From contig JBEKEQ010000002.1 of the NCBI GenBank assembly GCA_050013735.1, forward strand, positions 11,834 through 75,833: a stretch of 64,000 nt of DNA, in the 5' to 3' direction. Below the pieces are notes generated by a model. It made no database searches and had not been told where the DNA came from. It was given only the letters and a program-made list of their open reading frames with translations. The stretch is from Terracidiphilus sp. (GTDB lineage: Bacteria; Acidobacteriota; Terriglobia; Terriglobales; Acidobacteriaceae). The translations under genes were made by a program, and so were the position numbers. Positions 29,338 through 61,314 of this stretch are shown here, piece after piece; the first letter of the stretch is position 1; every line of letters begins with the position of its first letter.

Positions 29338-29362
29338 ACACACATAGGGAATGGTGCCCCTC

Positions 29363-29911: not shown

Positions 29912-29987
29912 GAATCACTCTCAATTCCTGTCGCCTCGGGTCCCGTCCCTCCGGGGCTGAGGCCCGCATCCAATTCTGCGGTTTTAT

Positions 29988-36435: not shown

Positions 36436-36630
36436 AAGAGCCTCCAGCGGAAGGTTTTCCGCGCCTTCAGGCTACATCATGGGCTTTGGGGTCCGGACAG
36501 AGTGGTGGCGACTGAATCGGCCGCGCCATCGATCTGAATGAACAGAGGGGAACATGGGTCCCCCGTTCACGGCCGCCGGGGCGGCCGTGAAAGACGTGGG
36601 TGTGCTTGCCCGTTGTTTTCAGGCGGATTT

Positions 36631-37314: not shown

Positions 37315-37667
37315 GTTTTCTCCATAGGGTTGGTTTTGGCTTCCGCGCCCAGGGGCGCGGCAGCGAGTGCGCACGGCAGCGAGCCGAATGAACTGGAAGG
37401 CAAGCCCCGTGGAAATGGGGTCTGCGCGAGAGGCGAGAAAAGGGGAAGCCGGCTGGCTGTCTGATGTGCCCACGCAGTGTTGCAGGAATCGCCGCGCGAA
37501 GTCAAGAAAATCCTGCGCTTCGACTCATTGCACGGATAGCGGGAGCCCATCCAGGCTCAAATTCATCGTACGTTTGCATAATCTTTGCCTGTTTGAAGTA
37601 CCCTGTTCATAGTTCCGTGCGGCCTACGCAATTGAATTGAAACGGCCGCCGGGCGAGGGCTGACCGT

Positions 37668-38366: not shown

Positions 38367-38371
38367 TTCAA

Positions 38372-39814: not shown

Positions 39815-39879
39815 ATTCGAGCTGCAGCCGGCGATTCAATCCTCTTCAATCATGCCCATTCACAGCCACGTCAGTTAGT

Positions 39880-45869: not shown

Positions 45870-46610
45870 ATGACCGCAACTCTCCCAATCCGAACCCAGG
45901 CCGAGCGCGCCGATCAGACGCGCGCCCGAATTCTTTCCTCTGCCATCCGCCAATTCAGCGAAAACGGCCTGGCGGGTGCGCGCACCGAGCAAATTGCCGA
46001 GGCGGCCGGGGTAAACAAGGCGCTGCTTTATTACTACTTCCGCAGCAAGGAAGAACTCTATTCAGCCGCCATCGAGGCAATGGCCGAAGGGGTACGCGCC
46101 ACGAGCATGGCGGTAATGGACTCCGATGCTTCGGCTGGAGAGCGATTCCTACGGCTGGTGTTGAACCACTTCGATCGGATTCACCTCAACCGCCAGTTTC
46201 AGACGCTCATGCAGCAGGAGATGATCCGGCTTCATCGGGGCGAGGCCAACGCGGTGGAACCGCTGGTGGAGAAACTCTTCAGGCCGCTGTGGATCAGGGT
46301 TCGGACGGTGGTGGAAGAGGGCATCGCTTCAGGCGAGCTGATCCCGGCTGAGTGGATGCAGTTGATCTATGCGGGGCTGGGCGCCAATGTTTTCTACTTT
46401 CTTTCCGCGCCCATGACCCAAATGACGCAAGGGTTCGATCCGCTTGCGCCCGATTCGCTGAGGCTACGGCGAAAGGCGGCCATCGAGTACCTGGGCATGG
46501 CAATTTTTATCGACCGGGAACATGGGGCGCAGGTGGCCGCTCGGGTTCTTGACGAAGCACCGATGCCGGCAATTGACGTATTGAAAATGAATGAAGTGAG
46601 GCGAATGTGA
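45870..46610 (+). CDS. TetR/AcrR family transcriptional regulator
   Basis: The N-terminal HTH is ..RILSSAIRQFSENGLAGARTEQIAEAAGVNKALLYYYFRSKEELY... Confidence 0.9.
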   Translation: MTATLPIRTQAERADQTRARILSSAIRQFSENGLAGARTEQIAEAAGVNKALLYYYFRSKEELYSAAIEAMAEGVRATSMAVMDSDASAGERFLRLVLNHFDRIHLNRQFQTLMQQEMIRLHRGEANAVEPLVEKLFRPLWIRVRTVVEEGIASGELIPAEWMQLIYAGLGANVFYFLSAPMTQMTQGFDPLAPDSLRLRRKAAIEYLGMAIFIDREHGAQVAARVLDEAPMPAIDVLKMNEVRRM

Positions 46611-47671
46611 ACGCGCGAAATAAAGTATTTCTGATTTTGGGCCTACTGACCGTGGGGTCGCTGATCTGGTATTTCGTTACCGTCAGGCCCAGGGGCGACC
46701 TGCAACTGATCGGGACCGTGGACGCGAACGAAGTGCTGGTGAGCGCCAAGATTCCGGGTCGGCTGCAGACGTTGACGGTGGACGAAGGCCAGGACGTGAA
46801 GGCCGGCGAGCTCATCGCCGTAATTGAAAGCAACGACCTGCAGGCAGCTCGCCAGGCCGCCGAGGCCACAGCCTCTAGCCAGAAGTGGAAGCTGGGCGAG
46901 ATGGTGGAGACCGAGCGCCAGACCAGGGGAGAAACCGGCAGCGCAACCGTGAACGCCGAGGCGCTGGTCAAGGCCGCGCAGGCTTCGCTGGCCCAGGCGC
47001 AGGCGCAGTACGAACACCAGCAGGCCGATACCAGCCGCACGGTGGCGCTGGCGCAACAGGGGATCATGAGTGCCCAGGCCAAGGATGACGCAGCCACCAG
47101 TTTGCAGGCCGCCAAGGCTGCAGTCGATACCGCCAAAGACAATGTGGTGGCCGCAGAGGCATCTTTGCGCCAGGCCCGGGCCCACCAACTCCTAACCGCC
47201 GTGGCTGCGCGCACCGTGGACTCCACCCGCGACGAGGCCGAGAATGCCAGCGCGCTTGCCCAGGAAGCCAAGGTGGAGCTGGGCTATTCGCAGATTTTTG
47301 CGCCGGTGGGCGGTAGGGTGAATGTTCGCGTTGCGCGCGAGGGCGAAGTGGTAGCCGCCGGTGCGCCGATTGTGACCATCATGGACCTGACCCAGACCTG
47401 GGTCTACGCCCCGCTGCCTGAAACGCAGGCTGACGCCGTTCAACTGGGCGACTCTCTGCGGGTAGTGATGCCCAGCGGTGCAACGGTCCAAGGCAAGGTG
47501 ATCAACAAGGCAGCCGAGGCTGACTTTGCCACGCAGCGCGACGTGAGCGCCCGCAAACGGGACATCAAGACCATCCAGCTTAAACTGCTCATCGATAACC
47601 CCGGCGAGCGCTTTGTGCCTGGAATGACCGCGGAAGTCTACATTCCCAAGAGCAAGGTGGTGAAGCAATGA
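46607..47671 (+). CDS. HlyD-family membrane fusion / periplasmic adaptor protein
   Basis: It has an N-terminal anchor, a long coiled-coil (AQAQYEHQQADT..), and lipoyl/beta-barrel segments (..VKAGELIAVIE.., ..PGMTAEVYI..). The GTG start overlaps the tetR stop. Confidence 0.85.
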   Translation: MNARNKVFLILGLLTVGSLIWYFVTVRPRGDLQLIGTVDANEVLVSAKIPGRLQTLTVDEGQDVKAGELIAVIESNDLQAARQAAEATASSQKWKLGEMVETERQTRGETGSATVNAEALVKAAQASLAQAQAQYEHQQADTSRTVALAQQGIMSAQAKDDAATSLQAAKAAVDTAKDNVVAAEASLRQARAHQLLTAVAARTVDSTRDEAENASALAQEAKVELGYSQIFAPVGGRVNVRVAREGEVVAAGAPIVTIMDLTQTWVYAPLPETQADAVQLGDSLRVVMPSGATVQGKVINKAAEADFATQRDVSARKRDIKTIQLKLLIDNPGERFVPGMTAEVYIPKSKVVKQ

Positions 47672-48717
47672 CCGTCCAGACAGCGGTCGAAATGGCCGCC
47701 ACAAGCAACGGGGCGCAGCCGCGCGTAGCCATCTCAGTGGAAAACATCGTTAAGCGGTACGGCACGTTTGAAGCCGTAAAGGGCGTGAGCTTCTCGGTGG
47801 CCGACGGCGAGATTTTCGGACTGCTGGGTCCCAACGGAGCCGGCAAGAGCACCTTGATCCGCATGATGACCACGCTGGTCCCCATCACCAGCGGGAAGGC
47901 GACGGTTGCCGGGCACGATGTGGCCAGGGAGCCGGACGCCGTGCGACGCGAGATCGGCGTGATTCCACAGGCCCTCACCAGCGATCCCGATCTGACGGTG
48001 GGAGAGAATCTGAGCATCTACGCCAAGCTCTATGGGGTGCCCAGGGTAGAGCGCGAAAAGAACATCGCCGATGTGCTGGAGGCGGTGGATCTGGTGAAGT
48101 GGCGCGGGGCGCAGGTGAAAACCCTCTCCGGTGGGATGCGGCGGCGGGTCGAGATTGCCCGGGGCCTGGTCCACAATCCGCACATCTTTTTTCTTGACGA
48201 GCCCACAACCGGCCTCGATCCCGTTTCGCGCATCGCGGTGTGGGAGATGCTGGACAATCTGCGGACGACAAGGCACCTGACGATTTTGATCACCACCCAC
48301 TACATGGAAGAAGCCGACAAGCTCTGCGACCGCCTTGCCATTGTCGATCACGGCACCCTGGTGGCCCTGGGCACGCCCATCGAGCTGAAGCAAAGCGTTC
48401 CCGGCGCCAACGTTGTTGAGGTCCACTTCGACCGCGAAGCCGAGCAGTGGAAGGCGCGGCTGGAAGGGATGGATGGCGTAACCAGCGTGCAAGCCGAAAG
48501 CGCGGGCTTTTATCGCGTGCTAACTTCCTCAGGATCGCGCACCACCATGCAGTTAGTCGAGTTAGCCGCGTCTCTTGACGAAACCATAACTTCTCTCAGC
48601 GTCCAGAACACCACGCTGGATGACGTGTTTGTTCACTACACGGGCCGTCAGCTGCGCGACGAGCAGGTGAAACCTCCGCCATTTATGTTGCCGCCGCGTC
48701 CCGGAGCACAACCATGA
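47668..48717 (+). CDS. ABC transporter ATP-binding protein (ABC-2/DrrA type)
   Basis: Walker A is GPNGAGKST, the signature is LSGGMRRRV and Walker B is IFFLDEPTTGLD. Start and stop overlap the neighbouring genes. Confidence 0.9.
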   Translation: MTVQTAVEMAATSNGAQPRVAISVENIVKRYGTFEAVKGVSFSVADGEIFGLLGPNGAGKSTLIRMMTTLVPITSGKATVAGHDVAREPDAVRREIGVIPQALTSDPDLTVGENLSIYAKLYGVPRVEREKNIADVLEAVDLVKWRGAQVKTLSGGMRRRVEIARGLVHNPHIFFLDEPTTGLDPVSRIAVWEMLDNLRTTRHLTILITTHYMEEADKLCDRLAIVDHGTLVALGTPIELKQSVPGANVVEVHFDREAEQWKARLEGMDGVTSVQAESAGFYRVLTSSGSRTTMQLVELAASLDETITSLSVQNTTLDDVFVHYTGRQLRDEQVKPPPFMLPPRPGAQP

Positions 48718-49826
48718 ACCGAATGTTCGCCATTGTGGAGCGCGAGATGCGCAAGTTTTTCCGCTCGCCCACGTTGATGATCATGTCGCTGATGATGCCT
48801 ATCTTGCAGCTGGTTATCATGGGCAATGCTTTCGGCGGAAAAATCGTCGGCGAGCGTGTTGCCGTTGTCGATCACGACCACGGCCCGCAAGCGGTCAAGA
48901 TTCGCGAAGCCCTTGACGCCATTGCCGTCAACATCAAGACCTTCACCACCATTGAGTATGACTCGGAGGTGCAGGCCCGCGAAGATGTGCGCACCGGGAA
49001 AATCGACGGGGCCATCATTATTCCCGCTCAATACTCCCGTCGCGTCTACGCCCAGGACGCACCGCAAATCGGCCTCGTCGTCGATAACACCGATCCTTTC
49101 AGTTCAAGCAGCATCGAGTCAGAAATGCAGTTGGTAATCAGTGCGCTCACTGCTCCCGTCATTCAGCCTCGCCTCGCCAGTCAAATTGCTTTGGAGGTCG
49201 TCGAGTTATATCCCTACGTCAATTACATGAAGTTTTTGCTTCCCGCAACCATCGCACTGGCCATGTATATATCGGTGATGATCGGCGGCGGCATGTTATA
49301 TATCGATGACAAAGCCCGCGGCGTTCATGAGGGTTACCTGGTTACGCCTATTACAAAGTTCGAGTTAGTTTTCGGGCTGAATATGGCGGGCGCCATGAAG
49401 GCCGTGCTCAGCGGCATTTGTCTTACGGTGATCGGCACGCTGATGGCCGGCCTGGGAGTCATCTTTCACCCTGAAGTATTGCTCGAGCTATTCTGCCTGA
49501 TCCTGTGCACTTCGATCGCCTTCAATGGCATGATGTTTCTACTCATGGTCCGCGTCGACGATCCCCTCGTTCCGCGCGCCATGTTCGGAGTGCTCAACAC
49601 GCTGCTCTTCTATCCTTCCGGCGCCATGTATCCCATCGCCTCGTTTCCCCCGTGGCTCCGCGCCCTGGCGGTGGTGGATCCTTTTACCTACGTCATTCAC
49701 GGCCTCAAGTCCGTTTTATTAAAGGACGGCGGATTCGAAGCCATTAAATTCGATTTGCTCTTTCTGTTCGTTTTCGGAATGAGCACATTGCTCATCGCCA
49801 CGCCGCTGTTCAAGCGCACGTTGTAA
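48714..49826 (+). CDS. ABC-2 type transporter permease
   Basis: An N-terminal TM helix and large periplasmic loop are followed by 5 TM helices. It is translationally coupled to the ATPase. Confidence 0.85.
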   Translation: MNRMFAIVEREMRKFFRSPTLMIMSLMMPILQLVIMGNAFGGKIVGERVAVVDHDHGPQAVKIREALDAIAVNIKTFTTIEYDSEVQAREDVRTGKIDGAIIIPAQYSRRVYAQDAPQIGLVVDNTDPFSSSSIESEMQLVISALTAPVIQPRLASQIALEVVELYPYVNYMKFLLPATIALAMYISVMIGGGMLYIDDKARGVHEGYLVTPITKFELVFGLNMAGAMKAVLSGICLTVIGTLMAGLGVIFHPEVLLELFCLILCTSIAFNGMMFLLMVRVDDPLVPRAMFGVLNTLLFYPSGAMYPIASFPPWLRALAVVDPFTYVIHGLKSVLLKDGGFEAIKFDLLFLFVFGMSTLLIATPLFKRTL

Positions 49827-49887
49827 CCATAGCGGCGGGTAGTATACTTCCCGGTACCGGAAAATCAAGAAAAAGGCAGGGAACGGG

Positions 49888-50757
49888 ATGAGCCGTGTGC
49901 GGGAGTGGCTGGCTGGAGGTTTGCTGATCACCGATGGCGCCTGGGGGACGGAACTGCAGGCCCGCGGGCTGCCCGTCGGCGCCAACCCGGACACTTGGAA
50001 TCTGAGCCATCCTGAACGTGTGGAATCAGTCGCACGGGCTTATGCCGAAGCAGGCAGCCAGGTAATTCTCACCAACACTTTTCGCGCCAACGCCATTGCG
50101 ATGCCGGACTCGAATGCGGGCGATCTCGACGCCATCAATCGCGCCGGGGTTGCCTTGTCGCGCAAGACTGCGGGGAAGGCATTGGTGTTTGCGTCGATCG
50201 GTCCGACGGGGAAAATGCTTGTGTCGGGTGAGATTGGCAGCGAACAGGTGAGCGCGGCATTTGCCGCGCAGACCTCCTCTCTGGCTGCGGCGGGCGCGGA
50301 CGCATTGCTGGTGGAAACAATGAGCGACATCGAGGAGGCGCGGCTGGCTGTAGAGGCGGCGCGCCGCACGGGATTGCCGGTGGTGGTTTCGTTTGCCTTC
50401 GACTCCGGGAAGAACAAGGACCGCACCTTGATGGGGGCAACCCCGGAGGCCGTGGCTGCTGCGATGGTGGAAGCGGGTGCTGACGCGGTGGGAGCAAACT
50501 GCGGCGTGGGAGTTGAGCAGGCAGTAACTATTTGCCAGCGACTGCACGCCGCCTGCGATTTGCCCATCTGGATCAAGCCAAATGCGGGCTTGCCGAAGAT
50601 GGACGGAACAGCAATTCATTACGACACGTCGGCGGAGTTCTTCGCATCCCACTTTGCCCCGCTGCGCGAGGCTGGCGCGTCATTTCTAGGCGGTTGCTGC
50701 GGCTCCACGCCGGAGTTTATTCGCGCGCTGGTGAACGCGCGGAGAGACGCGCGATAA
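49888..50757 (+). CDS. Stand-alone homocysteine S-methyltransferase domain protein (MetH N-terminal / MmuM / BHMT family)
   Basis: It shows ..ITDGAWGTEL.. and ..LTNTFRAN... The zinc-ligand cysteines are in ..GANCGVG.. and ..LGGCCGSTPEFI... At 289 aa it has no pterin-binding or B12-binding domain. Confidence 0.85.
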   Translation: MSRVREWLAGGLLITDGAWGTELQARGLPVGANPDTWNLSHPERVESVARAYAEAGSQVILTNTFRANAIAMPDSNAGDLDAINRAGVALSRKTAGKALVFASIGPTGKMLVSGEIGSEQVSAAFAAQTSSLAAAGADALLVETMSDIEEARLAVEAARRTGLPVVVSFAFDSGKNKDRTLMGATPEAVAAAMVEAGADAVGANCGVGVEQAVTICQRLHAACDLPIWIKPNAGLPKMDGTAIHYDTSAEFFASHFAPLREAGASFLGGCCGSTPEFIRALVNARRDAR

Positions 50758-50833
50758 ACGGCTGCGAGTTATAAGTCGATTGAGTTATTGGAGAGAAAGT
50801 GTATAAAGCATTTCGAATTGAGAGGGTGGCGCT

Positions 50834-51928
50834 ATGACTCCGCGGGAACGCATTCTAGCCGTCTTGAATCGCCAGCCCGTGGATCGGATCCCGGTGGATC
50901 TTTGGCATACACCGGAGATCGGCGCGCTGCTGCGCAAACATTGCGGAGTTGCGGACGATCTGGCAATGTACCGGGCGTTGGGCCTGGACAAAATTGTTTG
51001 GGTCTTCATGGATTACGAAACTGCAGAAGGGGAACGTGCGGGGGCGCAGTCGGGGGCCGGGGCAGAGGATGGCGGTAGCCGGACGATGTGGGGCGTTCCG
51101 CTGAAAGACATCGAGGCCGGCGAGGCCCATTATGCAGAGTTCGGCGCCGCGCCGCTGGCGGGTTACGATACGCCGGAGTCGCTGGACAATTATCCCTTTT
51201 GGCCGAGCGTCGAGCGCTTCAATTATGACCTGGCAGTAAGCAAAGCGCGCGAGGCAGCGCGGGAATTTGCGGTGATTGAGCCGTGGGTTTCGTTTTTTGA
51301 GATTTATTGCCAACTGCGTGGACTGGAACAATCGTTGATGGATTTGGTCGAAGCTCCGGAGATGGTGGAAGCGATTCTGGACCGCGTGGAGCAAATTCAG
51401 ACGGAGATGATGCGGCGATTCTTCGCTCTTGCCGGCGAGTCAGTGGATCTGGTTTTTATCAGCGACGACATTGCGGGACAGACCTCGCTGCTCATGTCGC
51501 CTACGCATTGGAAGCGGCACTTGCAGCCGCGGCTCAAGCGCTGGTGCGACTTGATTCATGCGCAGGGATTGAAGGTTTTCTATCATACCGACGGCGCGGC
51601 GCGTAAGCTGCTGGGGCCAATTCTCGACTGCGGCGTGGATGTGCTCAATCCGATTCAGCACGCCTGCCCTGGAATGGAGTTGGAGGGACTCAAGCACGAT
51701 TTCGGTGATCGCGTGATTTTTCACGGAGGCGTGGACAACCAATTTGCACTGCCGCGCGGAACGGCAGAGGATGTGCGCAAAGAGGTGCGTCATTGCCTGG
51801 ACACGCTGGGCGCGGGGCGCGAGGGATTCATTTGCTGCTCGTGTCATAACGTTCAAGCCGGCACGCCGCTTGAAAATATTCTGGCCATGATTGAAACCGT
51901 TCAAAACGAGCCGGCGCGGCAACTCTGA
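50834..51928 (+). CDS. Uroporphyrinogen decarboxylase (URO-D) superfamily protein, non-HemE subgroup (paralog 1)
   Basis: The C-terminal half (..FISDDIAGQTSLLMSP..W..H..P.., ..VFYHTDGAA.., ..VDVLNPIQ.., ..GTPLENILAM..) fits the URO-D/MT2 TIM-barrel pattern. It is a paralog of 54951-56069. The HemE N-terminal signature is absent. Confidence 0.75.
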   Translation: MTPRERILAVLNRQPVDRIPVDLWHTPEIGALLRKHCGVADDLAMYRALGLDKIVWVFMDYETAEGERAGAQSGAGAEDGGSRTMWGVPLKDIEAGEAHYAEFGAAPLAGYDTPESLDNYPFWPSVERFNYDLAVSKAREAAREFAVIEPWVSFFEIYCQLRGLEQSLMDLVEAPEMVEAILDRVEQIQTEMMRRFFALAGESVDLVFISDDIAGQTSLLMSPTHWKRHLQPRLKRWCDLIHAQGLKVFYHTDGAARKLLGPILDCGVDVLNPIQHACPGMELEGLKHDFGDRVIFHGGVDNQFALPRGTAEDVRKEVRHCLDTLGAGREGFICCSCHNVQAGTPLENILAMIETVQNEPARQL

Positions 51929-51972
51929 GTGGCGAGGCTATTGAAGCAGCGTAGATTGAGCGGGGCAGGAAG

Positions 51973-53016
51973 ATGCTGGAAGAAATGACGTCGCTCGAAA
52001 GATGTCTGGCTACCATTCGGCAGGCGCCGCATGATCGCGTGCCGGTGGACCTGCATAACTTCATGATGACCGTCGCGGACGTTGATCGACCTTCGCAGCA
52101 GATCTACCAGGACGGGCAGTTGCTCGGCGAAGCGCAGGTGGCTGCATGGAAGCGCTTCGGCCACGATATGCTCCTGGTCGAGAATGGAACCGCCGCGCTG
52201 GCGGAGGCTTGCGGCTGCCAGGTAACTTACCTGCCCGGAAGCGCGCCGATCATCGAAAAGCCGCTGCTGGAGAGCATTTCCCGGGTTTCGAGCCTTAGGA
52301 AGCCTGATCCATGGCATTCCCCTTTGGCCCGGGCTGTGCTTGACGCGACACGCTACGTGCTCGACCAGATCGGCGACCTGGCTTTCGTCATGGGCCGAGC
52401 CGACCAGGGGCCTTTCGATCTGGCCTGCCTGATCGCCGGGCCGGTAACCCTGATGACCGAAATGGCGGCGGGTGAGAGCGACGAGCAAATCTTCGAGTTA
52501 CTCGAATATGCGAGCGACTGTTTCATTCTCTACGCCCGCATGTTCAAAGAGATGGGCTGTCCCGGCACTTCAATTGGAGAAGCGCAATGCTCTCCCGACG
52601 TGATCTCGCCCAGGATGTATGAAAAATACTGCCTTCCTTATGGCCGGAAGGTGGTGAGCGCATTGCAGAGCGACGATTTCATCTTGGCCTACCATACCTG
52701 CGGCAACACGACGAAAATTATCGACCGCATGGTGCAGACTGGCGCCGGGATACTCGAATTCGATTACAAGTGTGACAAGGCCGCCGCCAAGCGAGCCACA
52801 GCGGGAAAGACCACACTGCTAGGCCCCATCGATCCCAGCGGAGTGTTGCATGAAGGATCGGTTGATGACGTCGAGCGAGCCTGCCGCGAGGCCATCGAAG
52901 TGCTTGCGCCGGGCGGCGGATTCATTCTCGGGCCAGGCTGCGCGCTGCCCGCGACTACGCCTGCTGAGAACATCGACAAGCTAGTGGGATGCGCCAAGGC
53001 CCACGGTCGGTATTAG
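51973..53016 (+). CDS. MtaA/CmuA-like URO-D family methyltransferase (methylcobamide:thiol methyltransferase-like)
   Basis: ..SPDVISPRMYEKYCLPYGRKVV..LAYHTCGNTTKIIDRMVQTGAGILEFD..LLGPIDP..GFILGPGCALPATTPAENI.. matches the MtaA pattern as I remember it. This includes the HxCG motif and a distal Cys, which are the zinc ligands. Confidence 0.75.
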   Translation: MLEEMTSLERCLATIRQAPHDRVPVDLHNFMMTVADVDRPSQQIYQDGQLLGEAQVAAWKRFGHDMLLVENGTAALAEACGCQVTYLPGSAPIIEKPLLESISRVSSLRKPDPWHSPLARAVLDATRYVLDQIGDLAFVMGRADQGPFDLACLIAGPVTLMTEMAAGESDEQIFELLEYASDCFILYARMFKEMGCPGTSIGEAQCSPDVISPRMYEKYCLPYGRKVVSALQSDDFILAYHTCGNTTKIIDRMVQTGAGILEFDYKCDKAAAKRATAGKTTLLGPIDPSGVLHEGSVDDVERACREAIEVLAPGGGFILGPGCALPATTPAENIDKLVGCAKAHGRY

Positions 53017-53054
53017 GAGATTTACAGAAGAGATTGCCCGTTTCAGGTGATGCA

Positions 53055-54935
53055 ATGTTCGAATTGATGCCGGTCTCCAATGCCGCCAGTTGTTTCAAAC
53101 CCTCTATGGCTCTGTTGTCTTTCATCGCCGCGCCACTGGCGCATCTGAAGGAGCTGGACATCGCAGTAATTGCCATCTACTTCGGGATGGTGATCTGGAT
53201 TGGCTTTTATCTGAAGGGCAAGTCAAATACCAGCGAAGAGTTTTTTATGGCTGGGCGCGAAATGACCGCATGGATCGCGGGTTTGAGCTTTGTTTCCGCA
53301 AACCTGGGATCGCTGGAACTGATGGGCTGGGCCGGCTCGGCTTATCAGTACGGTCTTCTGGCCGCGCACTGGTACTGGTCGGGCGCCATTCCCGCCATGC
53401 TTTTCCTGGGACTGGTGATGATGCCCTTCTATTACGTTTCGAAGACGCATTCGGTCCCCGGCTATTTGAAACTGCGCTTTGGCGAGCATGCGCGCATTCT
53501 TTCGGCATTTTCTTTTGCAGCCGAGATGGTGCTGATGAGCGGCGTCAACATGTTCGCAATGGCGGTGGTGATGAAGGTGGTGCTGGGTTGGAACATCACT
53601 TTCAGCATCCTCGTTTCTTCGCTTGCCGTTGCGGCTTATGTGAGTCTGGGTGGGCTGCGCTCGGCCATCTTCAATGAAGTTTTGCAGTTTGTTCTTATCT
53701 GGGGCGGCGCGCTGCTGGTGCCGATTCTGGGACTGGTGCAGGCAGGCGGAATCAATGGACTGAGAGCGAAGATCATTTCGAATCTTCACTCCGACAGTTA
53801 CTTTCACCTGTGGCGCGATACGGGGCATTTTTCTGCTAATCCCATGGGCATTCAGTGGACCGGAATTGTGTTTGGACTGACCGTGATTGGTTTCGGCTAC
53901 TGGACGACGGACTTTCTGGTTGTGCAGCGGACGCTGGCCGCGCGCAATTTGCAGGCCGCGCGGATGGCTCCGGTCATCGGCGCATTCTTCAAAATGGCGG
54001 TTCCGTTCATTGTGATCCTGCCCGGACTGCTGGGTTTGGTGCTGCTGCAAAACTCCGATGGGAGCCGCAGGCAGTTAGTGGGTGAGGACGTGGTGAAATC
54101 ATGCGTAGCGAACGGAGCAGGAGTTGAAGACAGAGCCGGCTGCGCTGCCGCGATGAAGGCGAAAACCACCCTCCCCGCGAGTTATCAGCAGAGCGTGCTG
54201 AGCGGAGCGGAGGGAACAGAGTTACATAGTTACAACGAAGCGCTGCCGCTAATGATGGTGCGCTACTGCGGACCTGGCCTGCTTGGCCTGGGCATTACCG
54301 CGCTGATTGCCGGCTTCATGAGCGGCATGGCCGGCAATGTGAGCGCGTTCTCAACTGTGTGGACGTATGACATTTACAAACCGCTCATCAATAAGAAAGG
54401 CTCTGACAGCCACTATGTGCTGGTGGGCCGATGGTCGATTGTGATCGGCGTAGCCGTTTCGGTCGGCGCGGCCTACCTGGTGATGCACGCGCACGGCATC
54501 ATGGATTACGTGCAGGCGCTGTTCAGCTTTTTTATCGCGCCGCTGCTGGGCGCAATCCTGATGGGAATGTTCTGGAAGCGGGCCACGGCACCGGCCGGTT
54601 TCCTGGGTTTGCTCACAGGAATCGTAACTTCAGTAAGCTTGTTTGTGTGGGTCAAGTTGAATCCAGCGGAACTGGCCCGGGTGGCTATTTCGCCCGACGC
54701 CAGGCCAATGGCCGAGAATCTTTATCGCGGACTATGGGCATTCCTGAGCACTCTGATTGTAATCTTCGTGGTAAGTTTGTTTACCAAGCAAAAACCGGTG
54801 GCGGAATTGGAAGGCCTCGTATACGGAGCGACGAAGCTGCCCAAAGAAGACGCGGTCCCGTTTTATAAAAATGTGTGGCTGTGGGCCTCACTCGCGCTGA
54901 TTACGCTGGCGGCGCTGAACATTGTGTTCTGGTAG
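53055..54935 (+). CDS. Sodium:solute symporter family (SSS/SGLT-like) transporter
   Basis: It has about 13-14 TM helices. ..YFGMVIWIGFYLKGK..SEEFFMAGREM.. and ..GSLELMGWAGSAYQYG.. are typical of the SSS family. ATG at 53055 follows AGGTGA. Confidence 0.85.
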   Translation: MFELMPVSNAASCFKPSMALLSFIAAPLAHLKELDIAVIAIYFGMVIWIGFYLKGKSNTSEEFFMAGREMTAWIAGLSFVSANLGSLELMGWAGSAYQYGLLAAHWYWSGAIPAMLFLGLVMMPFYYVSKTHSVPGYLKLRFGEHARILSAFSFAAEMVLMSGVNMFAMAVVMKVVLGWNITFSILVSSLAVAAYVSLGGLRSAIFNEVLQFVLIWGGALLVPILGLVQAGGINGLRAKIISNLHSDSYFHLWRDTGHFSANPMGIQWTGIVFGLTVIGFGYWTTDFLVVQRTLAARNLQAARMAPVIGAFFKMAVPFIVILPGLLGLVLLQNSDGSRRQLVGEDVVKSCVANGAGVEDRAGCAAAMKAKTTLPASYQQSVLSGAEGTELHSYNEALPLMMVRYCGPGLLGLGITALIAGFMSGMAGNVSAFSTVWTYDIYKPLINKKGSDSHYVLVGRWSIVIGVAVSVGAAYLVMHAHGIMDYVQALFSFFIAPLLGAILMGMFWKRATAPAGFLGLLTGIVTSVSLFVWVKLNPAELARVAISPDARPMAENLYRGLWAFLSTLIVIFVVSLFTKQKPVAELEGLVYGATKLPKEDAVPFYKNVWLWASLALITLAALNIVFW

Positions 54936-54950
54936 CTTGAAACACGCTGG

Positions 54951-56069
54951 ATGGGAGACCGAATGAAGGCGCGTGATCGAGTCAGCAAGTCTTTGAACCG
55001 GCAGCAGCCGGATCGTTGCCCGATGCAGATCAGTTTTACCCCGGAGTTTGCGCTAAGGCTGCGCGCGGATATGCATCTCACCGGTCAATCCGCGCATAAC
55101 CCGCACGGCGGCGGCAACACCTACGAGTTGGAACGCGCGCTGGGCCAGGATTTACTGCTAACTTCGGTGGGCTGGGCTAACTCCTATTACGCCAACGAGA
55201 GTTATGGCGGCGGCGAGAGTTACACCGACGAATGGGGAGTCGGATGGAAAAACGCCCCCTACATGACCAATTATGGGCCCGGATTCTACACCGACATCGT
55301 CGGCCATCCTCTGGCGGATGCTCATGCGCTCGATTCCTACCATCCGCCCGATCCGCACCGGCCGGAGTTATACAAGGAGGCTGAGCGACTGATCGCTTTG
55401 CACAAGGACGAATACTGGATCGTTGGCGTCACCGTGACGACGATCTTCGAAACTGCGTGGGCGCTGCGCGGATTTGAGCAGATGCTAATGGATTTTAGTG
55501 AAGATCCAGGACTGGCAGACGCGATTCTCGAAATCCCGTTCCGCTATCATCTTGCCGCGGCCAAACGGTTGGTGGAGATGGGCGTCGACATGATCTGGAC
55601 CGGGGACGATGTGGGCACGCAGCAGGGCATGCTTATTTCGCCGCGCACCTGGCAGCGATTTTTCAAGCCGCGCATGGCTGAGTTTATCGCAGCGTTGAAG
55701 GGCATCAACCCGCAGGTGAAGGTGGCCTACCACTCCGACGGAAACATCGAGCGCATCCTTCCCGAGATGATTGAGATCGGGCTCGACATACTGAATCCGG
55801 TGCAGCCGGCGAGCATGGACCCCGCCAAACTGAAGCGGCTATACGGAGACCGGCTATGCTTCTGGGGCACCATTGACGAACAGCACACGCTACCCTTCGG
55901 TACGCCGGAACAGGTGCGCGCACAAGTGCTGGAGCGGATTGAAACCGTTGGCTATGACGGCGGGTTGATCCTTGCTCCGACCCATCATGTGCAGTTAGAC
56001 ACGCCGCCTGAAAACTTCTGGGCGATGGTTCACGCGATCACGGGCAACGAAGAGCTGAGGGCTGGGTAA
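54951..56069 (+). CDS. Uroporphyrinogen decarboxylase (URO-D) superfamily protein, non-HemE subgroup (paralog 2)
   Basis: ..WTGDDVGTQQGMLISPRTWQRFFKP.., ..VAYHSDGNI.., ..LDILNPVQ.. and ..DTPPENFWAM.. parallel 50834-51928. An alternative start is the ATG at 54963. Confidence 0.75.
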   Translation: MGDRMKARDRVSKSLNRQQPDRCPMQISFTPEFALRLRADMHLTGQSAHNPHGGGNTYELERALGQDLLLTSVGWANSYYANESYGGGESYTDEWGVGWKNAPYMTNYGPGFYTDIVGHPLADAHALDSYHPPDPHRPELYKEAERLIALHKDEYWIVGVTVTTIFETAWALRGFEQMLMDFSEDPGLADAILEIPFRYHLAAAKRLVEMGVDMIWTGDDVGTQQGMLISPRTWQRFFKPRMAEFIAALKGINPQVKVAYHSDGNIERILPEMIEIGLDILNPVQPASMDPAKLKRLYGDRLCFWGTIDEQHTLPFGTPEQVRAQVLERIETVGYDGGLILAPTHHVQLDTPPENFWAMVHAITGNEELRAG

Positions 56070-56093: not shown

Positions 56094-58904
56094 TTATTTC
56101 GGATGCGCACTGAGCTTGTCGAGTACATGCTTCAAATCGTCAAGCTTCTGCCCGGCTTCCGCCAGTTTGCCTTCTGAGGTGAGCCGCTGATAATCGGAAA
56201 AGTCTTTGCCTGCCTGCCCGATGAGAGAGTCAAGACTTTGCGCGGGTTGCGGTAACGCTCCTGGTTCCGCTGCGGCATGCGGAGTTTCGCTTGCGCTCAA
56301 TGACGAAGATTCAGTTCCAAAGAGCGAGGCGAGCGCAGCCTCGAATGTTGGTGCGTAGGCCAGGCGATCCTGGAGCGCCAGCACAACCAGACGCAGCTCC
56401 GGCATTGGGCTGCGTTCAGCCTGCAGGTAAATGGGCTCCGCGTAAAGCAGTGCTTTGCCGCAGGGAATCACAAGCAAACTGCCGCGGCGCACGTGGGAGC
56501 CTTGCTGATTCCACAGCGTGAGTTGCCCTGAAAGCTGCGCGTTCTGATCGATCCGCGCTTCAATCTGTTGTGGTCCGTCAACAAGCTTGGTCTTGGGAAA
56601 GTCATAGACAACGGATGTGCCATAATGCGCCCCGTCACTTCGGGCGGCAATCCAGCCGATAAGATTGTTGCGGTTGGCCGGCGTGAAAGGAAGAATCTCA
56701 ACAAACTCCAGGCCGGTTTCTCCGGGGAGTTTCATCAGCACAAAGTTAGGTTGCATCGGCTGAGTGGCTTGCTCACCACCTTCGGACGTGCCGGTTTCCG
56801 TGGCCACTGTCCATAAGTCTTCGCGGTTATAGAAGACTTCAGGATTAGTCATGTGATAAAGGCCGTAGACTTCAGCCTGCAAACTCAGCAATAACTCTGG
56901 GTAACGCACATGCTTTTGCAGCCACGCGGGCATCTCCGCCTTGTCTTTGAACAACGAAGGGAAAATGCCGCGATAGGCAGCCAATATTGGGTCTTCGCTG
57001 TCGAAGACATAGAAGGTCGTCGCGCCATTGTAGGCATCGACGACCACTTTGACGCTGTTGCGCATGTAATTGATGGGCTCATTGCCCAGAGTGTGATGCG
57101 CGGAGTAAGGATAACTGTCGGATGAAGTGAACGCATCGATCACCCAGGAGAGGCGGCCATCGTCGCCGACCACGATGTAAGGATCCTGATCGAAAGCAAG
57201 GAATGGCGCAAGAGCGGCCACCCGCTCGCGCACGTTGCGGCGCATCAGCAGCCGGCTGCCGGCGTTAACGTCGTCGCTAAAGGGCACCTTGGCAATGTCG
57301 CCGCGGTCGAACGCGATCAAAACACGGCGCAAAAAACCGCCGAGCTCGATGCCGCCGCTGCCCTCATAGGTGGCGAGATTGTTCGTCTGGCCTTCAGGAT
57401 AGTTGAATTCCTGCTGCCGCGTCTTCACATAGACGTCGGTGTCGGTCATCTCGCCAAAGTAGATTTCCGGTCGAGTTACCTTGAGTCCGGGGACGGTGCT
57501 CTGGACGGGCATGTTGCTGAGCATCAGCGTGGGCAGGCCTTCGGCCGTGAACCCATTCACCGGGTTCATGGTGATGCCGTAGCCGTGGGTGTAGATGAGC
57601 TTGTCGTTGATCCAGTTACGGCTGCTCTCGGGCAGCTTGTCCACATTGAGCTCGCGCGCGGAGAGCATCACCTCGCGCAAGGCGCCATCGATTTGATAGC
57701 GATCGATGTCGATGCCGGGAAAGTCGTAATAGGTGCGAATCTCCTGGATCTGACGAAGTGTGTCCTTGAGCGCCTGCACGTCCCAGAGGCGGATGTTTTG
57801 AAGAGTGGCCTGGTTATTGGCAGGGTCGGTGGCGCCCACAGTTGTTTCGGCGGGAAACTCGAACCGGGAGAAGCGGTCCAGGCCATACGCCTGGCGTGTC
57901 ATCTCGATGTTGTGCACAATATAAGGCTGTTCGCGAACCAGTTCGTTGGGCTTGACAATGAAGCTGCTCACATACCAGCCCACCACGCCTACCACGACAT
58001 AGCAGACCGCAGCTGGAAGAATCGAAGCGGCGAGCCAGCGGGCGCGCGGTTGCAGTGCGCCTCCAACCAGGGCGATCAAGGCCCCTAGAACGAGAGCCGC
58101 GCAGACGAAAAGCTGGCCTGTCAGCATGACGTGGTCGTCGGTGTAAGTAACTCCCTCAAAGATGGTGTGGTGCTCCAGCAATAAGTCGAACCGGCCGAGA
58201 TAGACGCGCAGGGCAACCACGAGCAAGAGGAATCCGACCGCGAGCGAAAGCCCGCGCAAGGGGAGCTGGATGGCGCGGCTAAAACCTCCTCCGAAAGCGC
58301 GTGAACCCCCGGTGATGACGAGGAAAGCGGCAGCCAGGATGCAGACGAGTATGGCCAAGGTAAAAAGCCAGCCGGCGATCAGATGCCAGGCCGGAAGCGT
58401 AAACAAAAAGAAATTGAGCGGCAGGCCGAAAATGGGATCGGTTACGCCGCCGGAGCCGTGTGGGGCATACCAGAAAAGCGCCAGCGTGGGCCACTCGGCC
58501 TCCATTGCGGCGCCGGTGGCGAGTGCGACCACGATGGAACCGAGAATGGAGGCAACACGCAGTATCGGACCTACCGGCAAGTTGACCGCGTTACCCGCGA
58601 CGTAGATGGTGTGCTCGCCCGGCAGATCGGCGGCGTGGGCGCGCTTGAGACCGGTGAACGCCCCATAAACAATGAGAAATGTTGTGGCCGCAAAAGCTGT
58701 GAAGATGCCCCACTCGAGTCCCCAGGTCTTGAAGAAAACGCTGCCGTAGCCGAGAGACTGGAACCACAGCAGATCAACCCAGTAGGAAAGCGCGGTCCGG
58801 CTGGAGAAGAGGATTGCGGCGATGATGGCTAAAAAAATAAGGAAGGCGCGGCGATGGGGCCGTGCAGGCTGTGTTTTGCGCGGCCAATCAATGGACTCGG
58901 GCAT
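56094..58904 (-). CDS. UPF0182 family large membrane protein (function unknown)
   Basis: The N-terminal multi-TM region contains ..YWVDLLWFQSLGYGSVFFKTWG.., followed by a large soluble part of roughly 650 aa. This is the typical UPF0182 architecture. The start is uncertain: GTG 58943, ATG 58931 or ATG 58904. Confidence 0.8.
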   Translation of the reverse strand: MPESIDWPRKTQPARPHRRAFLIFLAIIAAILFSSRTALSYWVDLLWFQSLGYGSVFFKTWGLEWGIFTAFAATTFLIVYGAFTGLKRAHAADLPGEHTIYVAGNAVNLPVGPILRVASILGSIVVALATGAAMEAEWPTLALFWYAPHGSGGVTDPIFGLPLNFFLFTLPAWHLIAGWLFTLAILVCILAAAFLVITGGSRAFGGGFSRAIQLPLRGLSLAVGFLLLVVALRVYLGRFDLLLEHHTIFEGVTYTDDHVMLTGQLFVCAALVLGALIALVGGALQPRARWLAASILPAAVCYVVVGVVGWYVSSFIVKPNELVREQPYIVHNIEMTRQAYGLDRFSRFEFPAETTVGATDPANNQATLQNIRLWDVQALKDTLRQIQEIRTYYDFPGIDIDRYQIDGALREVMLSARELNVDKLPESSRNWINDKLIYTHGYGITMNPVNGFTAEGLPTLMLSNMPVQSTVPGLKVTRPEIYFGEMTDTDVYVKTRQQEFNYPEGQTNNLATYEGSGGIELGGFLRRVLIAFDRGDIAKVPFSDDVNAGSRLLMRRNVRERVAALAPFLAFDQDPYIVVGDDGRLSWVIDAFTSSDSYPYSAHHTLGNEPINYMRNSVKVVVDAYNGATTFYVFDSEDPILAAYRGIFPSLFKDKAEMPAWLQKHVRYPELLLSLQAEVYGLYHMTNPEVFYNREDLWTVATETGTSEGGEQATQPMQPNFVLMKLPGETGLEFVEILPFTPANRNNLIGWIAARSDGAHYGTSVVYDFPKTKLVDGPQQIEARIDQNAQLSGQLTLWNQQGSHVRRGSLLVIPCGKALLYAEPIYLQAERSPMPELRLVVLALQDRLAYAPTFEAALASLFGTESSSLSASETPHAAAEPGALPQPAQSLDSLIGQAGKDFSDYQRLTSEGKLAEAGQKLDDLKHVLDKLSAHPK

Positions 58905-59058
58905 TTCTCCACCCCACTTTACCGATCTCATGCTGAGATACACAGCGATTCTACGCCGTTTGGTGCGGGAAGACTGTTCCCGCTGCCGCTGTCAGGGCAG
59001 GAGATGCTGGTGGCCGGGGGGACGCTTTGTTGCAAACCATGTATTTTTCCACTTAAAC

Positions 59059-59160: not shown

Positions 59161-61257
59161 ATGACACTGAACCGCAGGGACTTTATCGGCGCAATGATCG
59201 CATCCTCTTCTTTAAAAACACTCGGGGCATCGCTTGCAACAGGCCAGGTGCCTTCATCATCCGCACAGGGCGATTGGCTGAAGGGCGGCATGGTCGATGC
59301 CGGCGGTACGCACGAGCCGTATATCTTTATCGTGCGCCGCGGCGGGCAACGCACTGACCAGCTGGAAATCAGCAGGTACGAACAGAGTGAAGAGCTGATC
59401 AAGAAGCTTCACAGCCAGGGAATCGAGGTCTTCCATACCAGCCTCTACAAAGGCTTTGGCATGGCCGCTGAAAAAGAGGGAATGGAGCGCACACGCGACG
59501 CAGTGGCCGTCGCGCACCGTTACGGCATGAAGGTGGATACCTATGTCCAATGGGGCTCTCTCATGTATGAAACCTTCTTTGCCGAGGAGCCGCGCGCCGA
59601 GCACTGGATTCAACGGGATAGTGTGGGACGGCCGATCATGCTCACCTACGGCTACCAGCAATCCTTCCGTTACATGCCATGTTTTGCCAACCAGGACTAT
59701 CTGGACTATCTCAAGAAAATCATTCGATATGCAATTGTGGACGTGAAAACCGACTTTATTCATCTGGATAACTTCAATCTCGTTGCGGAGCCGGATTCCT
59801 GCCATTGCCCCTGGTGCGTAAACGGCTTCAGGAAATTTTTGAGAACTAAATACACCCCAGCGCAACTGCGAGAGCGGTTTGGTTTTGAAAACATTTCCTT
59901 CGTCAATCCCCCGCAATGGAATAGAAACAACCCGCCGGATAAGATGGAAATCATCTACGACCCGGCATTTCAAGAGTGGATCGATTTCCGCTGCCAGTTG
60001 ATGGCCGATGCGCTGCGGCAAATCTCGGAATATGCCAGGTCCCTCAATCCAGAAGTTGCCATTGAGATCAATCCGGGCGGATTGAGCGGCGAAAACTATA
60101 CCTGGATGGCGGGCGTCGACCATTCCAGGCTTTTGAAATTTACTCAATCCTTTTGGAGCGAAGAAGCCAACCTGCCCGCTCTTCACGACGATGGCCGGCT
60201 GGTTACAAAGATTCGCAGTTTCAAGCTAGCGCGCGCTTATAACAATGTTCTATTGACCAGCGATCTTGCAAGCAATCCGGTAGCACTGGCTGAAACCCTG
60301 GCCTTCAATCAGACCATTGGCTGCGTGGGACTCGACGCTCTGAAGCCGGTAACTCTCAACTACATCGAGTTTTACCGCAAAAACCGCGAGTTATATTTGG
60401 GGAGCGAGGATGTCGCCCCGGTCGCGGTATTCCGTTCCTACGCTTCCCTTACATATCACCAGGCTCATGTGCAATTGAGCGCGGTCCTCACGGAGCAGGC
60501 TCTTATTCAATCGCGAACCCCATTTGTATTGGTCTTCGACGATTTACTCCATAACCTGGACACCTACAAAGTTCTCATCCTCCCCAATACCGAGTGCCTT
60601 TCAGACCAGCAAATATCACTGATCCGCCGCTATGTCGAAGCGGGCGGAGGCTTGGTGGTTACCGAGCAAACGGGACTCTATGACGAGTGGAGACGAGTGC
60701 GCACGCAGCCGGGCCTGGGCGGGTTAGTAGAAGGCCAGCTCTCAGGAACGGAGTATCAGGAAAAGGTCGATTCCCGGTTGAAGGTCACAGCATCGGGAAT
60801 GCGTAAGCAGAGTGGCCGGGGTAGAGTGGCCTATATCCCATCAATCGAATTTGATGGAACGTTGCCGCCGCCCGAGCCGTATTTCACAATCTCAAATCGC
60901 TTCTGGAAGCGCCCAAAAAACTGGAAAGATATCGTGGATGCCGTGTCCTGGGCCGCTGGAGATTCACTTCCTTTTGCCGTCGATGGCCCGGAGTTCCTCG
61001 GCGCAAACTACACATTCCAGCCTCGGAGTCGACGCTATCTCATCCACCTCGTCAATTACAACGCAACCAACGTTCCATCCATCGCGGATATTCAGGTGCG
61101 AGTGTCGCCGCCCCGAAATGAGAAGCCAATTCGGGTCACGCTCTACGCCCCAGACTCGAACAACGCACAGTCACTGGACTTTAGGGGCGATGGTCGCAGC
61201 GCCACATTCACCGTGCCGGAAACGCGAACGTATGCGTTAATTGCAGTTGAGCTGTAA
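59161..61257 (+). CDS. Tat-exported GH42-like (beta-galactosidase-fold) protein with a trimerisation/GATase-like middle domain
   Basis: The Tat signal is MTLNRRDFIGAMIASSSL. ..MPCFANQDYLDYLKKIIRYA..HLDNFN..DSCHCPWCVNGFRKFLRTKYTPAQLRERFG.. matches the GH42 catalytic-domain pattern with its Cys4 zinc site. ..YKVLILPNTECLSDQQISLIRRYVEAGGGLV.. matches the GH42 middle domain. Confidence 0.6.
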   Translation: MTLNRRDFIGAMIASSSLKTLGASLATGQVPSSSAQGDWLKGGMVDAGGTHEPYIFIVRRGGQRTDQLEISRYEQSEELIKKLHSQGIEVFHTSLYKGFGMAAEKEGMERTRDAVAVAHRYGMKVDTYVQWGSLMYETFFAEEPRAEHWIQRDSVGRPIMLTYGYQQSFRYMPCFANQDYLDYLKKIIRYAIVDVKTDFIHLDNFNLVAEPDSCHCPWCVNGFRKFLRTKYTPAQLRERFGFENISFVNPPQWNRNNPPDKMEIIYDPAFQEWIDFRCQLMADALRQISEYARSLNPEVAIEINPGGLSGENYTWMAGVDHSRLLKFTQSFWSEEANLPALHDDGRLVTKIRSFKLARAYNNVLLTSDLASNPVALAETLAFNQTIGCVGLDALKPVTLNYIEFYRKNRELYLGSEDVAPVAVFRSYASLTYHQAHVQLSAVLTEQALIQSRTPFVLVFDDLLHNLDTYKVLILPNTECLSDQQISLIRRYVEAGGGLVVTEQTGLYDEWRRVRTQPGLGGLVEGQLSGTEYQEKVDSRLKVTASGMRKQSGRGRVAYIPSIEFDGTLPPPEPYFTISNRFWKRPKNWKDIVDAVSWAAGDSLPFAVDGPEFLGANYTFQPRSRRYLIHLVNYNATNVPSIADIQVRVSPPRNEKPIRVTLYAPDSNNAQSLDFRGDGRSATFTVPETRTYALIAVEL

Positions 61258-61314
61258 CTCTGGCACATTCATTGAGATTTGCCAGCAAGGGAGGGAAGCG
61301 CAAAGAAAGTCGAG

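Follow-up and report, generated by a model that had tools for sequence, protein, structure and literature searches.

We examined a 64-kb stretch of Terracidiphilus sp. DNA (hereafter the window, meaning the whole stretch analysed) that carries, on its forward strand, five consecutive genes, g1 to g5 (Table 1). They encode a stand-alone homocysteine-binding (Hcy) methyltransferase domain, three proteins of the uroporphyrinogen decarboxylase (URO-D) fold and a sodium/solute symporter, and their relation to corrinoid-dependent methyl transfer is the subject of this report. The source contig in the JGI metagenome is the 124-kb Ga0439240_0000073, and the same genes are present in an NCBI metagenome-assembled genome (MAG) of Terracidiphilus sp., in which g1-g3 have the accessions MGD0729769-71 (g1, MGD0729769.1). 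JGI gene calls on the source contig agree with our open reading frames (ORFs) except that g5 starts 12 nt later. The original prediction for this DNA, made from sequence, described five co-directional genes at 49888-56069 separated by gaps of 76, 44, 38 and 15 nt, and the ORFs bear this description out.

Table 1. Features of the window and of selected homologue loci. Positions are those of the window unless a locus (L-number) is given.
Feature	Position	Strand	Description
g1	49888-50757	+	289 aa, PF02574; proposed methyl-corrinoid:homocysteine methyltransferase
g2	50834-51928	+	364 aa, PF01208, His-Asp-His; proposed O-type substrate:corrinoid methyltransferase (MT1)
g3	51973-53016	+	347 aa, PF01208, MtaA/CmuA-like, His-Cys-Cys; S-type site for a thiol or thioether
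g4	53055-54935 (longer alternative start 52989)	+	626 aa, PF00474, SGLT branch; proposed importer of the methylated substrate
g5	54951-56069	+	372 aa, PF01208, paralogue of g2 (31% identical); proposed second O-type MT1
Sigma-70-like promoter match, TTGTAA-16-TATACT	49821..49848	+	9/12 matches; weak; within the 61-nt gap 5' of g1
Hcy S-methyltransferase/MTHFR fusion, YitJ type	30371-32248	-	625 aa; PF02574 (1.7e-75) and PF02219 (2.2e-37)
DUF4964/DUF5127/GtaA six-hairpin protein	39811-41973	+	E 1e-135; probable glycoside hydrolase-like enzyme
UPF0182 family membrane protein	56094-58943	-	949 aa, E 2e-255; convergent with g5, 24 nt apart
Carbohydrate-utilisation neighbourhood	59161-63584 and contig past the window (L095)		
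ORFs without a Pfam match	32444-33967, 36538-37464, 44408-45283, 29351-29998		215-507 aa; some may not be genes
Six-gene operon	L178 8952-15302		URO-D (His-Cys-Cys), corrinoid protein, MtaB, DUF1638, RACo, Hcy methyltransferase (S-methyl_trans)
Locus with g2 and g3 homologues	L013 1-12423		Four distinct URO-D paralogues, MtaB, DUF1638, RACo, DUF4432, M17 peptidase, MFS sugar porter
Loci with g2 homologue (85%)	L019, L001		DUF1638, RACo, AraC, (Hcy methyltransferase, PurU), corrinoid protein, MtaB, g2
Locus with g2 homologue (82%)	L022		Corrinoid protein, MtaB, g2
Locus with g2 homologue (82%)	L024		Sugar-binding regulator, g2, corrinoid protein, URO-D, MtaB, DUF1638, RACo, then GH106 rhamnosidase
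g5 loci with corrinoid-system genes (examples)	L115, L125, L132, L142, L161		

Profile searches assigned each protein to the expected family (g1 to PF02574; g2, g3 and g5 to PF01208; g4 to PF00474), and the motifs quoted in the original prediction for g1, g2, g3 and g5 are all present in the translations. Its view that these are methyl-transfer proteins and that the URO-D proteins are not the haem enzyme is also supported: HemE was rejected as an identity for them, as g3 scored 52.4 bits and g2 15.8 bits against TIGR01464 (cut-off 302.95) and g5 gave no hit.

The g1 protein matches PF02574 over its full length (E 4.6e-65, positions 1-282 of 283), and the GANCG and GGCCG(S) motifs read from its translation form the zinc-binding Cys triad. 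Its best match in the PDB is the Hcy domain of T. maritima MetH (2e-42, versus 5e-18 for MmuM), and it scores below the cut-offs both of the MmuM model (100 versus 215) and of NF005718, the model for bacterial betaine-homocysteine methyltransferase (207.2 versus 338 bits). These comparisons indicate that g1 is a zinc/Cys3 homocysteine module, as was predicted, and they group it with MetH and not with MmuM or BHMT. A single PF02574 domain of about 290-340 aa with the Cys3 motif is also the architecture of the Hcy subunit of split MetH enzymes (MtgE/Bmt type), and g1 appears to fit such a subunit both by architecture and by the context of its orthologue. The orthologue, 80% identical to g1 from end to end, is the closing gene of a six-gene operon in a Terracidiphilus MAG (GCA_049515995.1, locus L178; L-numbers denote homologue loci and P-numbers homologue proteins). 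On paper, this operon would transfer methyl groups from methanol, or another MtaB substrate, to homocysteine in an Acidobacterium; we found no description of an operon of this type in the literature. Locus L179 has the same gene arrangement. On MtaB in Acidobacteria, the literature yielded just a mention at survey level. The window copy of g1 is unlinked to genes for a corrinoid protein, an activase or DUF1638, whereas its orthologue in L178 is operonic with all three, and all other PF02574 genes met in related loci (L001, L019, L115, L142, L161) share their locus with a corrinoid protein gene.

The Bmt protein of Phaeobacter inhibens, a stand-alone split-MetH Hcy subunit homologous to g1, makes methionine in vitro by methylating homocysteine directly from dimethylsulfoniopropionate (DMSP) or betaine (PMC12366255). 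If g1 worked alone in the manner of BHMT, MmuM or Bmt, taking its methyl group from an onium donor such as betaine, DMSP or S-methylmethionine, then the URO-D genes would be unrelated to it, and the 207 bits scored against NF005718 would agree with this. We consider such an arrangement quite unlikely: both the NF005718 and the MmuM scores lie under their cut-offs, PDB comparisons bring g1 much nearer to the Hcy domain of MetH than to either MmuM or BHMT, the 80% orthologue closes an operon with corrinoid protein, RACo and DUF1638 genes, and g4 is of a sugar type rather than a betaine (BCCT) or onium carrier.

Among the URO-D proteins, g3 alone matches PF01208 over its full length (E 6e-55); the match of g2 (E 4e-27) is confined to the C-terminal two thirds, and that of g5 has an E value of 1e-29. 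Alignment to MtaA of M. mazei (4AY7), in which the zinc ligands are His-Cys-Cys (in HxC and PGC), places His251-Asp253...His338 of g2 and His261-Asp263...His345 of g5 at the ligand positions, the first two residues of each set lying in the motifs YHTDG and YHSDG, respectively. The His-Asp-His set is invariant in 80 homologues of g2 and 79 of g5. The His-x-Cys...Cys zinc site of the MtaA/CmuA family is found only in g3, in which YHTCG...GPGC keeps His-Cys-Cys (HtCGN and PGC align to 4AY7). None of the three reaches the curated cut-off of TIGR01463 (MtaA/CmuA, 235.4 bits), with scores of 161.7 for g3, 82.7 for g5 and 73.6 for g2. Within the UroD superfamily, S-methyltransferases have a His-Cys-Cys site whereas O-(de)methylases have at least one Cys replaced by a carboxylate or non-coordinating residue (Kountz and Balskus, PMC10418091). 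By this rule, g2 and g5 would be of the O type and g3 of the S type.

We modelled g2 with AlphaFold2 (predicted local distance difference test score, pLDDT, 89.4; predicted TM-score, pTM, 0.90) and compared the model with solved structures using Foldseek, which returned MtaA (4AY7/4AY8) first with a TM-score of about 0.7, HemE second and MetE third. No solved structure closer than MtaA was found for g2 or g5, and the best matches of these proteins in both sequence and structure are methylcobamide methyltransferases. It might be argued that g2 and g5 are not methyltransferases at all but URO-D-fold metal enzymes acting on sugars in another way, for example by decarboxylation, by isomerisation or by hydrolysing a modification of the sugar. 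Their His-Asp-His site is unlike that of every characterised member, the PF01208 match is limited to the C-terminal two thirds, the TM-score to MtaA is just ~0.7, and most copies occur in glycan loci without corrinoid genes. Nevertheless, we regard this as very unlikely, as it would leave unexplained the operonic placement of these genes beside corrinoid protein, MtaB, RACo and DUF1638 genes in several phyla, as well as their best matches. A role for g2 as an acetogen-type second methyltransferase (MT2) was also rejected; the acetogen MtaA is reported to be a protein of ~30 kDa that methylates tetrahydrofolate, and we assume that its fold differs from that of g2. A literature search on URO-D proteins in polysaccharide loci returned nothing relevant. 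The His-Asp-His URO-D subfamilies of g2 and g5 and their embedding in sugar loci across phyla are new here, in that we found no earlier description of them.

Homologues of all four soluble proteins occur beside the genes of corrinoid systems. For g2 we examined homologues in 80 species genomes (L015-L094), and corrinoid-system genes lie beside it in six of these, with its closest relatives among them. Homologues of g2 at 80-85% identity directly adjoin corrinoid protein and MtaB genes in both Verrucomicrobiota and Acidobacteriaceae (L001/L019, L022, L024, L030), with g2 downstream in L001, L019 and L022 and first in L024. Corrinoid protein, RACo or DUF1638 genes are also near g5 homologues (76-80%) in at least 12 of 80 metagenomic loci, of which about half are short contigs and 42 have at least 5 kb of flank on at least one side. 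The g5 loci with corrinoid genes also hold a URO-D paralogue with a His-Cys-His site and at times an Hcy methyltransferase. For g3, a homologue (78%) follows corrinoid protein and MtaB genes in L012, and another (75%) is paired with a g2 homologue in L013, 7 kb from MtaB, DUF1638 and RACo; others lie between glycoside hydrolase (GH) genes in L008 and L180. An activase of the RACo/RamA type, often together with DUF1638, is encoded in L001, L012, L013, L024, L030, L115, L125, L142, L161 and L178.

The His-Cys-His proteins constitute a fourth URO-D subfamily (~424 aa) that has no counterpart in the window and that is found immediately beside g5 homologues and their corrinoid protein more often than any other partner (L115, L132, L139, L142 and ~13 further g5 loci). 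Sequence conservation also differs among the families. The g2 protein is conserved at 51-88% identity across Acidobacteriaceae, Verrucomicrobiota, Lentisphaerota, Planctomycetota, Bacteroidales, Chloroflexota and Hydrogenedentota (at least eight phyla in L015-L094), including 85% identity to a Limisphaerales (Verrucomicrobiota) MAG, and g3 is far less conserved, at ~52% in Chloroflexota. Such conservation of g2 suggests recent horizontal spread among glycan degraders.

We searched for the missing corrinoid components with a hidden Markov model (HMM) built from 17 corrinoid proteins, run against all six-frame ORFs of 30 aa or longer, and with phmmer using RACo, MtaB and DUF1638 as queries. The contig was followed for 9.6 kb past the 3' end of the window, such that 73.6 kb were covered. 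Neither search gave a hit in this DNA, and Pfam scans of the window ORFs judged to be genes revealed no corrinoid components, confirming the original observation that the window encodes no B12-binding protein or activase. The 9.6 kb past the window contain LacI, TonB-dependent receptor, GH2 and giant FG-GAP protein genes and no corrinoid genes, and an Rfam scan of the window found no cobalamin riboswitch or any other family. We also looked by NCBI accession for a corrinoid protein of the same MAG. The only corrinoid protein of that submission batch, MGD0680931, is ~49,000 numbers away from MGD0729769-71 and therefore belongs to another MAG; at least three other Terracidiphilus MAGs have annotated corrinoid proteins of this type. 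As encoded, then, the cluster supplies zinc-type TIM-barrel methyltransferases for both the donor and the acceptor side (g1; the triads of g2, g3 and g5) and lacks the corrinoid protein (PF02607 plus PF02310, with DxHxxG) and the activase of a corrinoid methyltransferase system.

The original prediction took this lack as the sign of a candidate new kind of system that works without a corrinoid protein, in which the URO-D enzymes would pass the methyl group straight to homocysteine or to g1. Such a system would resemble MetE, which shares their fold and is distantly related to g2 in structure. The 73.6 kb around the cluster are free of corrinoid genes, and most g2 and g5 homologues have none within 10 kb. 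However, across several phyla the four soluble proteins have close homologues that share operons with genes for a corrinoid protein, an activase and DUF1638, and the nearest solved structure is the methylcobalamin-dependent MtaA. By a rough estimate, corrinoid genes also seem to be ~10-30 times as frequent near these families as chance would give with a few such genes per genome, which likewise counts against direct transfer. The reading is not supported, and of the explanations considered here we give this one the least credence. Two of the outcomes that the prediction itself had named as fatal were also found, wholly or in large part: the gene cluster is not conserved, and corrinoid genes are recurrently encoded together with the homologues of g1, g2, g3 and g5.

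With respect to conservation, no genome of the 80 species has g1, g3, g4 or g5 near g2, including a Terracidiphilus genome in which g2 is 87% identical. Homologues of g3 lie elsewhere between GH20 and GH2 genes (80%) or beside a transposase gene (78%), and those of g5 at 82-85% do not have the other four genes alongside. Each family also has typical neighbours of its own, namely rhamnosidases for g2 and GH42 with CUT2 ABC transporter genes for g5. This pattern would be expected if the cluster were a mosaic brought together by local rearrangement, in which g1 is the housekeeping Hcy subunit of a split MetH, g2, g3 and g5 are accessories of three glycan pathways and g4 is an ordinary sugar importer. 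We think this unlikely, since gaps of 15-76 nt, a single orientation and the lack of a convincing internal terminator point to co-transcription. Moreover, two sub-modules recur, g2-g3 in L013 and on the shared contigs of P0001/P0140 and P0041/P0166, and symporter-g5 in L098 and L100, and the families of all four soluble proteins share corrinoid operons elsewhere.

The g4 protein matches PF00474 (E 1e-48) and exceeds the cut-off of TIGR00813 (239.5 versus 184), and its best PDB matches are SGLT1, SGLT2 and vSGLT (1e-56 to 1e-36), which places g4 by similarity in the sugar branch of its symporter family. In L013, the g2-g3 pair is followed directly by a sugar porter of the major facilitator superfamily (MFS; PF00083, 3.5e-102) in place of a g4-type symporter, and two unrelated families of sugar transporter thus occupy the same position. 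Sugar-related genes are also frequent around the homologues. Within 10 kb of g2, GH106, GH78, RhaA or RhaT genes occur in 20 of the 80 species genomes, spanning at least six phyla, and sulfatase genes are present at the g2 loci of 16. Among the g5 loci, 15-16 have CUT2 sugar ABC transporter genes, 13 have LacI and 10-11 have GH42. A g3 homologue in Ca. Sulfotelmatobacter accompanies an SSF symporter, GH116 and GH30, and one in Aggregatilinea accompanies LacI, a sugar ABC transporter and an alpha-amylase-family gene. Across all homologue flanks, CUT1/CUT2 sugar ABC transporters, LacI, GH2, GH20, GH30, GH42, GH78, GH106 and GH116 are represented.

Sugars had been listed among the candidate substrates in the original prediction, and both the SGLT-like g4 and the comparative context point to sugar-derived substrates. 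Given the type of transporter, the neighbours of the homologues and the glycan genes of the window, methylated sugars are the most economical guess at the substrate, although a tentative one and less firm than the dependence on a corrinoid. O-methyl-rhamnose and O-methyl-galactose are present in the walls of bryophytes and other plants, and such substrates would suit a peat origin.

On balance, we favour the reading that the five genes are a satellite, confined to one lineage, of a modular methyl-transfer network that depends on a corrinoid protein, and are not a self-contained, B12-free system. The L178 operon appears as a split-MetH core with MtaB and a URO-D protein on the donor side, and on this basis we place the five genes of the window around a hub of that kind. 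Genes dispersed around a shared corrinoid hub have been described in aerobes (PMC5764234, PMC12478193), and one corrinoid protein and MT2 can serve several MT1 enzymes (PMC13391211). Under this reading, g4 would import a methylated sugar or a similar solute freed by the surrounding glycan-degrading genes. In the MT1 role, as in O-demethylases, g2 and g5 would hold the methylated oxygen of the substrate at the His-Asp-His metal site and pass the methyl group to Co(I) in a small corrinoid protein of the MtaC type, whose gene would lie elsewhere in the genome. As MT2 and split-MetH Hcy subunit, g1 would shift the methyl group from methyl-Co(III) to zinc-activated homocysteine, yielding methionine. 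The MtaA-like His-Cys-Cys site of g3 might serve a thiol, either as an alternative methyl acceptor or as an S-methyl donor. Finally, a RACo/RamA-type activase with DUF1638, also encoded elsewhere, would re-reduce oxidised cofactor. The domains, the ligand patterns, the orthology of g1 to an Hcy methyltransferase encoded in an operon and the gene neighbourhoods of the homologues are direct observations. We infer the presence of a corrinoid protein and an activase in this genome, the assignment of the MT1 and MT2 roles and the methylated sugar as substrate. Within the model, we are more confident that the families depend on a corrinoid than that the substrate is a sugar.

Several observations weigh against this reading. 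The full set of five genes was seen only in this population (L006, L007 and the NCBI MAG), so the argument for a shared pathway draws on short gaps and common orientation alone. The searches of the window and the adjoining 9.6 kb for a corrinoid protein, RACo, MtaB and DUF1638 were negative, as was that of the same MAG by accession, and 74 of the 80 g2 homologues and most of the g5 homologues have no corrinoid gene within 10 kb. The subfamilies of g2, g3 and g5 include no characterised members, and our survey of the literature on corrinoid-dependent sugar demethylation found no corrinoid-dependent sugar O-demethylase. In addition, the direct methylation of homocysteine by Bmt concerns a homologue of g1, and a catabolic flux of methyl groups finds only a small outlet in methionine.

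The remaining genes of the window provide further context. The original prediction held the Hcy domain of g1 to be the only evident thiol acceptor module, and this did not hold: the fusion gene upstream on the opposite strand contains a second PF02574 domain, and g1 is therefore not the sole Hcy module of the window. The fusion could act in a split methionine synthase as its housekeeping Hcy/MTHFR component. Closer to g1, genes for TetR, an HlyD-type adaptor, a DrrA-like ABC ATPase and an ABC-2 permease (45870-49826, +), which overlap or abut one another, end 61 nt 5' of g1. They probably constitute a separate efflux operon from which read-through into g1 is possible, and the promoter match before g1 is a mere hint that g1-g5 can be transcribed apart from it. 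Promoter-like sites and intrinsic terminators are no more numerous in the region than in shuffled sequence, and their counts are thus uninformative about the limits of the operon.

Beyond the UPF0182 gene, the carbohydrate-utilisation neighbourhood includes a 698-aa protein that matches only the GH42 trimerisation domain, followed by a DUF5009 acyltransferase-like membrane protein, LacI, a TonB-dependent receptor and GH2. A giant protein with FG-GAP and Big_3_5 repeats runs off the end of L095 and is thus longer than 1,798 aa. GC content falls from ~0.61 to 0.53 across 48-64 kb. On the other side of the cluster, the six-hairpin protein gene is preceded by a two-component system (37668-39814) and followed by a PBP-like solute-binding protein gene (42118-43119).

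The original prediction knew of no described system with this composition, yet the closest precedents are already in the literature. In P. inhibens, a split methionine synthase consists of a PF02574 protein, a pterin-binding protein, a corrinoid protein, a RamA-like activase and DUF1638 (PMC5764234), and in Ruegeria pomeroyi one corrinoid protein serves both glycine betaine demethylation and methionine synthesis, with the genes scattered on the chromosome (PMC12478193). Like this Roseobacter split MetH/MtgBCDE hub, the L178 operon has a stand-alone PF02574 protein, a small corrinoid protein, a RamA/RACo-like activase and DUF1638, and in the model proposed here substrate-specific MT1 enzymes encoded by dispersed genes of aerobes would plug into one corrinoid protein. 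The hubs differ in their partners: methyl-tetrahydrofolate (via the pterin-binding subunit) and glycine betaine (via MtgB of the MttB superfamily) are the donors in Roseobacters, whereas here the partners are URO-D-fold and MtaB-family proteins in a context of sugar utilisation. No pterin-binding subunit was identified, and no search was aimed at one.

The Methanosarcina MtaB/MtaC/MtaA system resembles the cluster in that g3 shares the HxC...C zinc motif of MtaA in a full-length alignment, MtaA is the best structural match of the g2 model, and in related loci a g2- or g3-like gene comes after those for MtaB and an MtaC-like protein. Unlike MtaA, g2 and g5 have Asp and His in place of the two Cys ligands, g3 falls below the MtaA/CmuA cut-off, and the methyl acceptor is apparently homocysteine. 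To our knowledge, bacterial hosts would not be expected to have coenzyme M or methanogenesis.

A further parallel is offered by the phenyl methyl ether O-demethylases of acetogens and Desulfitobacterium (OdmB, VdmB, MtvB), which by their description are UroD MT1 enzymes with replaced Cys ligands (PMC10418091) and which depend, as we propose here, on a separate corrinoid protein and an ATP-dependent activase. These systems belong to strict anaerobes, their substrates are methoxylated aromatics and their methyl acceptor is tetrahydrofolate, in contrast to the sugar transporters, glycoside hydrolases and Hcy acceptor domain met here in Acidobacteriota, Verrucomicrobiota and other glycan degraders. 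The type 1 mlp clusters also combine several MtaA-like URO-D paralogues with the absence of a tetrahydrofolate methyltransferase from the cluster; their Mlps are mostly of the His-Cys-Cys type, occur in obligate anaerobes and have been proposed to act on methyl-sulfur or methyl-selenium substrates (PMC10418091). We rejected this identity for the window cluster, which has neither a corrinoid protein nor an activase and in which two of the three paralogues are His-Asp-His. Finally, BHMT, MmuM and YitJ share with g1 the zinc-Cys3 homocysteine-binding PF02574 barrel, but they use onium donors directly, and g1 falls below their curated cut-offs and is nearer the MetH Hcy domain. Overall, the cluster appears to function as one part of a corrinoid methyltransferase system with several components.

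Many sugars of plants, mosses and algae carry methyl ethers that prevent their catabolism, and we know of a single means of removing these, an O2-dependent cytochrome P450 acting on one sugar. This enzyme, reportedly a 6-O-methyl-D-galactose demethylase of marine Bacteroidota described by Reisky et al. in 2018, is said to work oxidatively and to release formaldehyde. If our substrate inference is right, both the P450 and the proposed system strip a methyl ether from a sugar for catabolism, with unrelated protein families, and the proposed system would conserve on the corrinoid the methyl group that the P450 route releases as formaldehyde.

A wider possibility, which we put forward as speculative, is that the g2 and g5 families supply the methyltransferases that bind the substrate in an undescribed corrinoid-dependent sugar-demethylating pathway, acting for example on the O-methyl-rhamnose or O-methyl-galactose of moss, plant or algal glycans and passing the methyl group via a shared corrinoid protein to homocysteine in a split-MetH-like hub. 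Such a pathway would be widespread among glycan-degrading Acidobacteriota, Verrucomicrobiota, Planctomycetota, Bacteroidota and Chloroflexota. For annotation, stand-alone URO-D "decarboxylase family" genes in glycan loci are best treated as probable corrinoid methyltransferases whose partners are encoded elsewhere. If these proteins are indeed corrinoid-dependent sugar demethylases, they would explain how abundant glycan degraders of soil and peat handle methylated sugars, they would tie polysaccharide turnover to vitamin B12 supply and methionine synthesis, and they would extend the idea of a shared corrinoid hub from marine Roseobacters to Acidobacteriota and Verrucomicrobiota.

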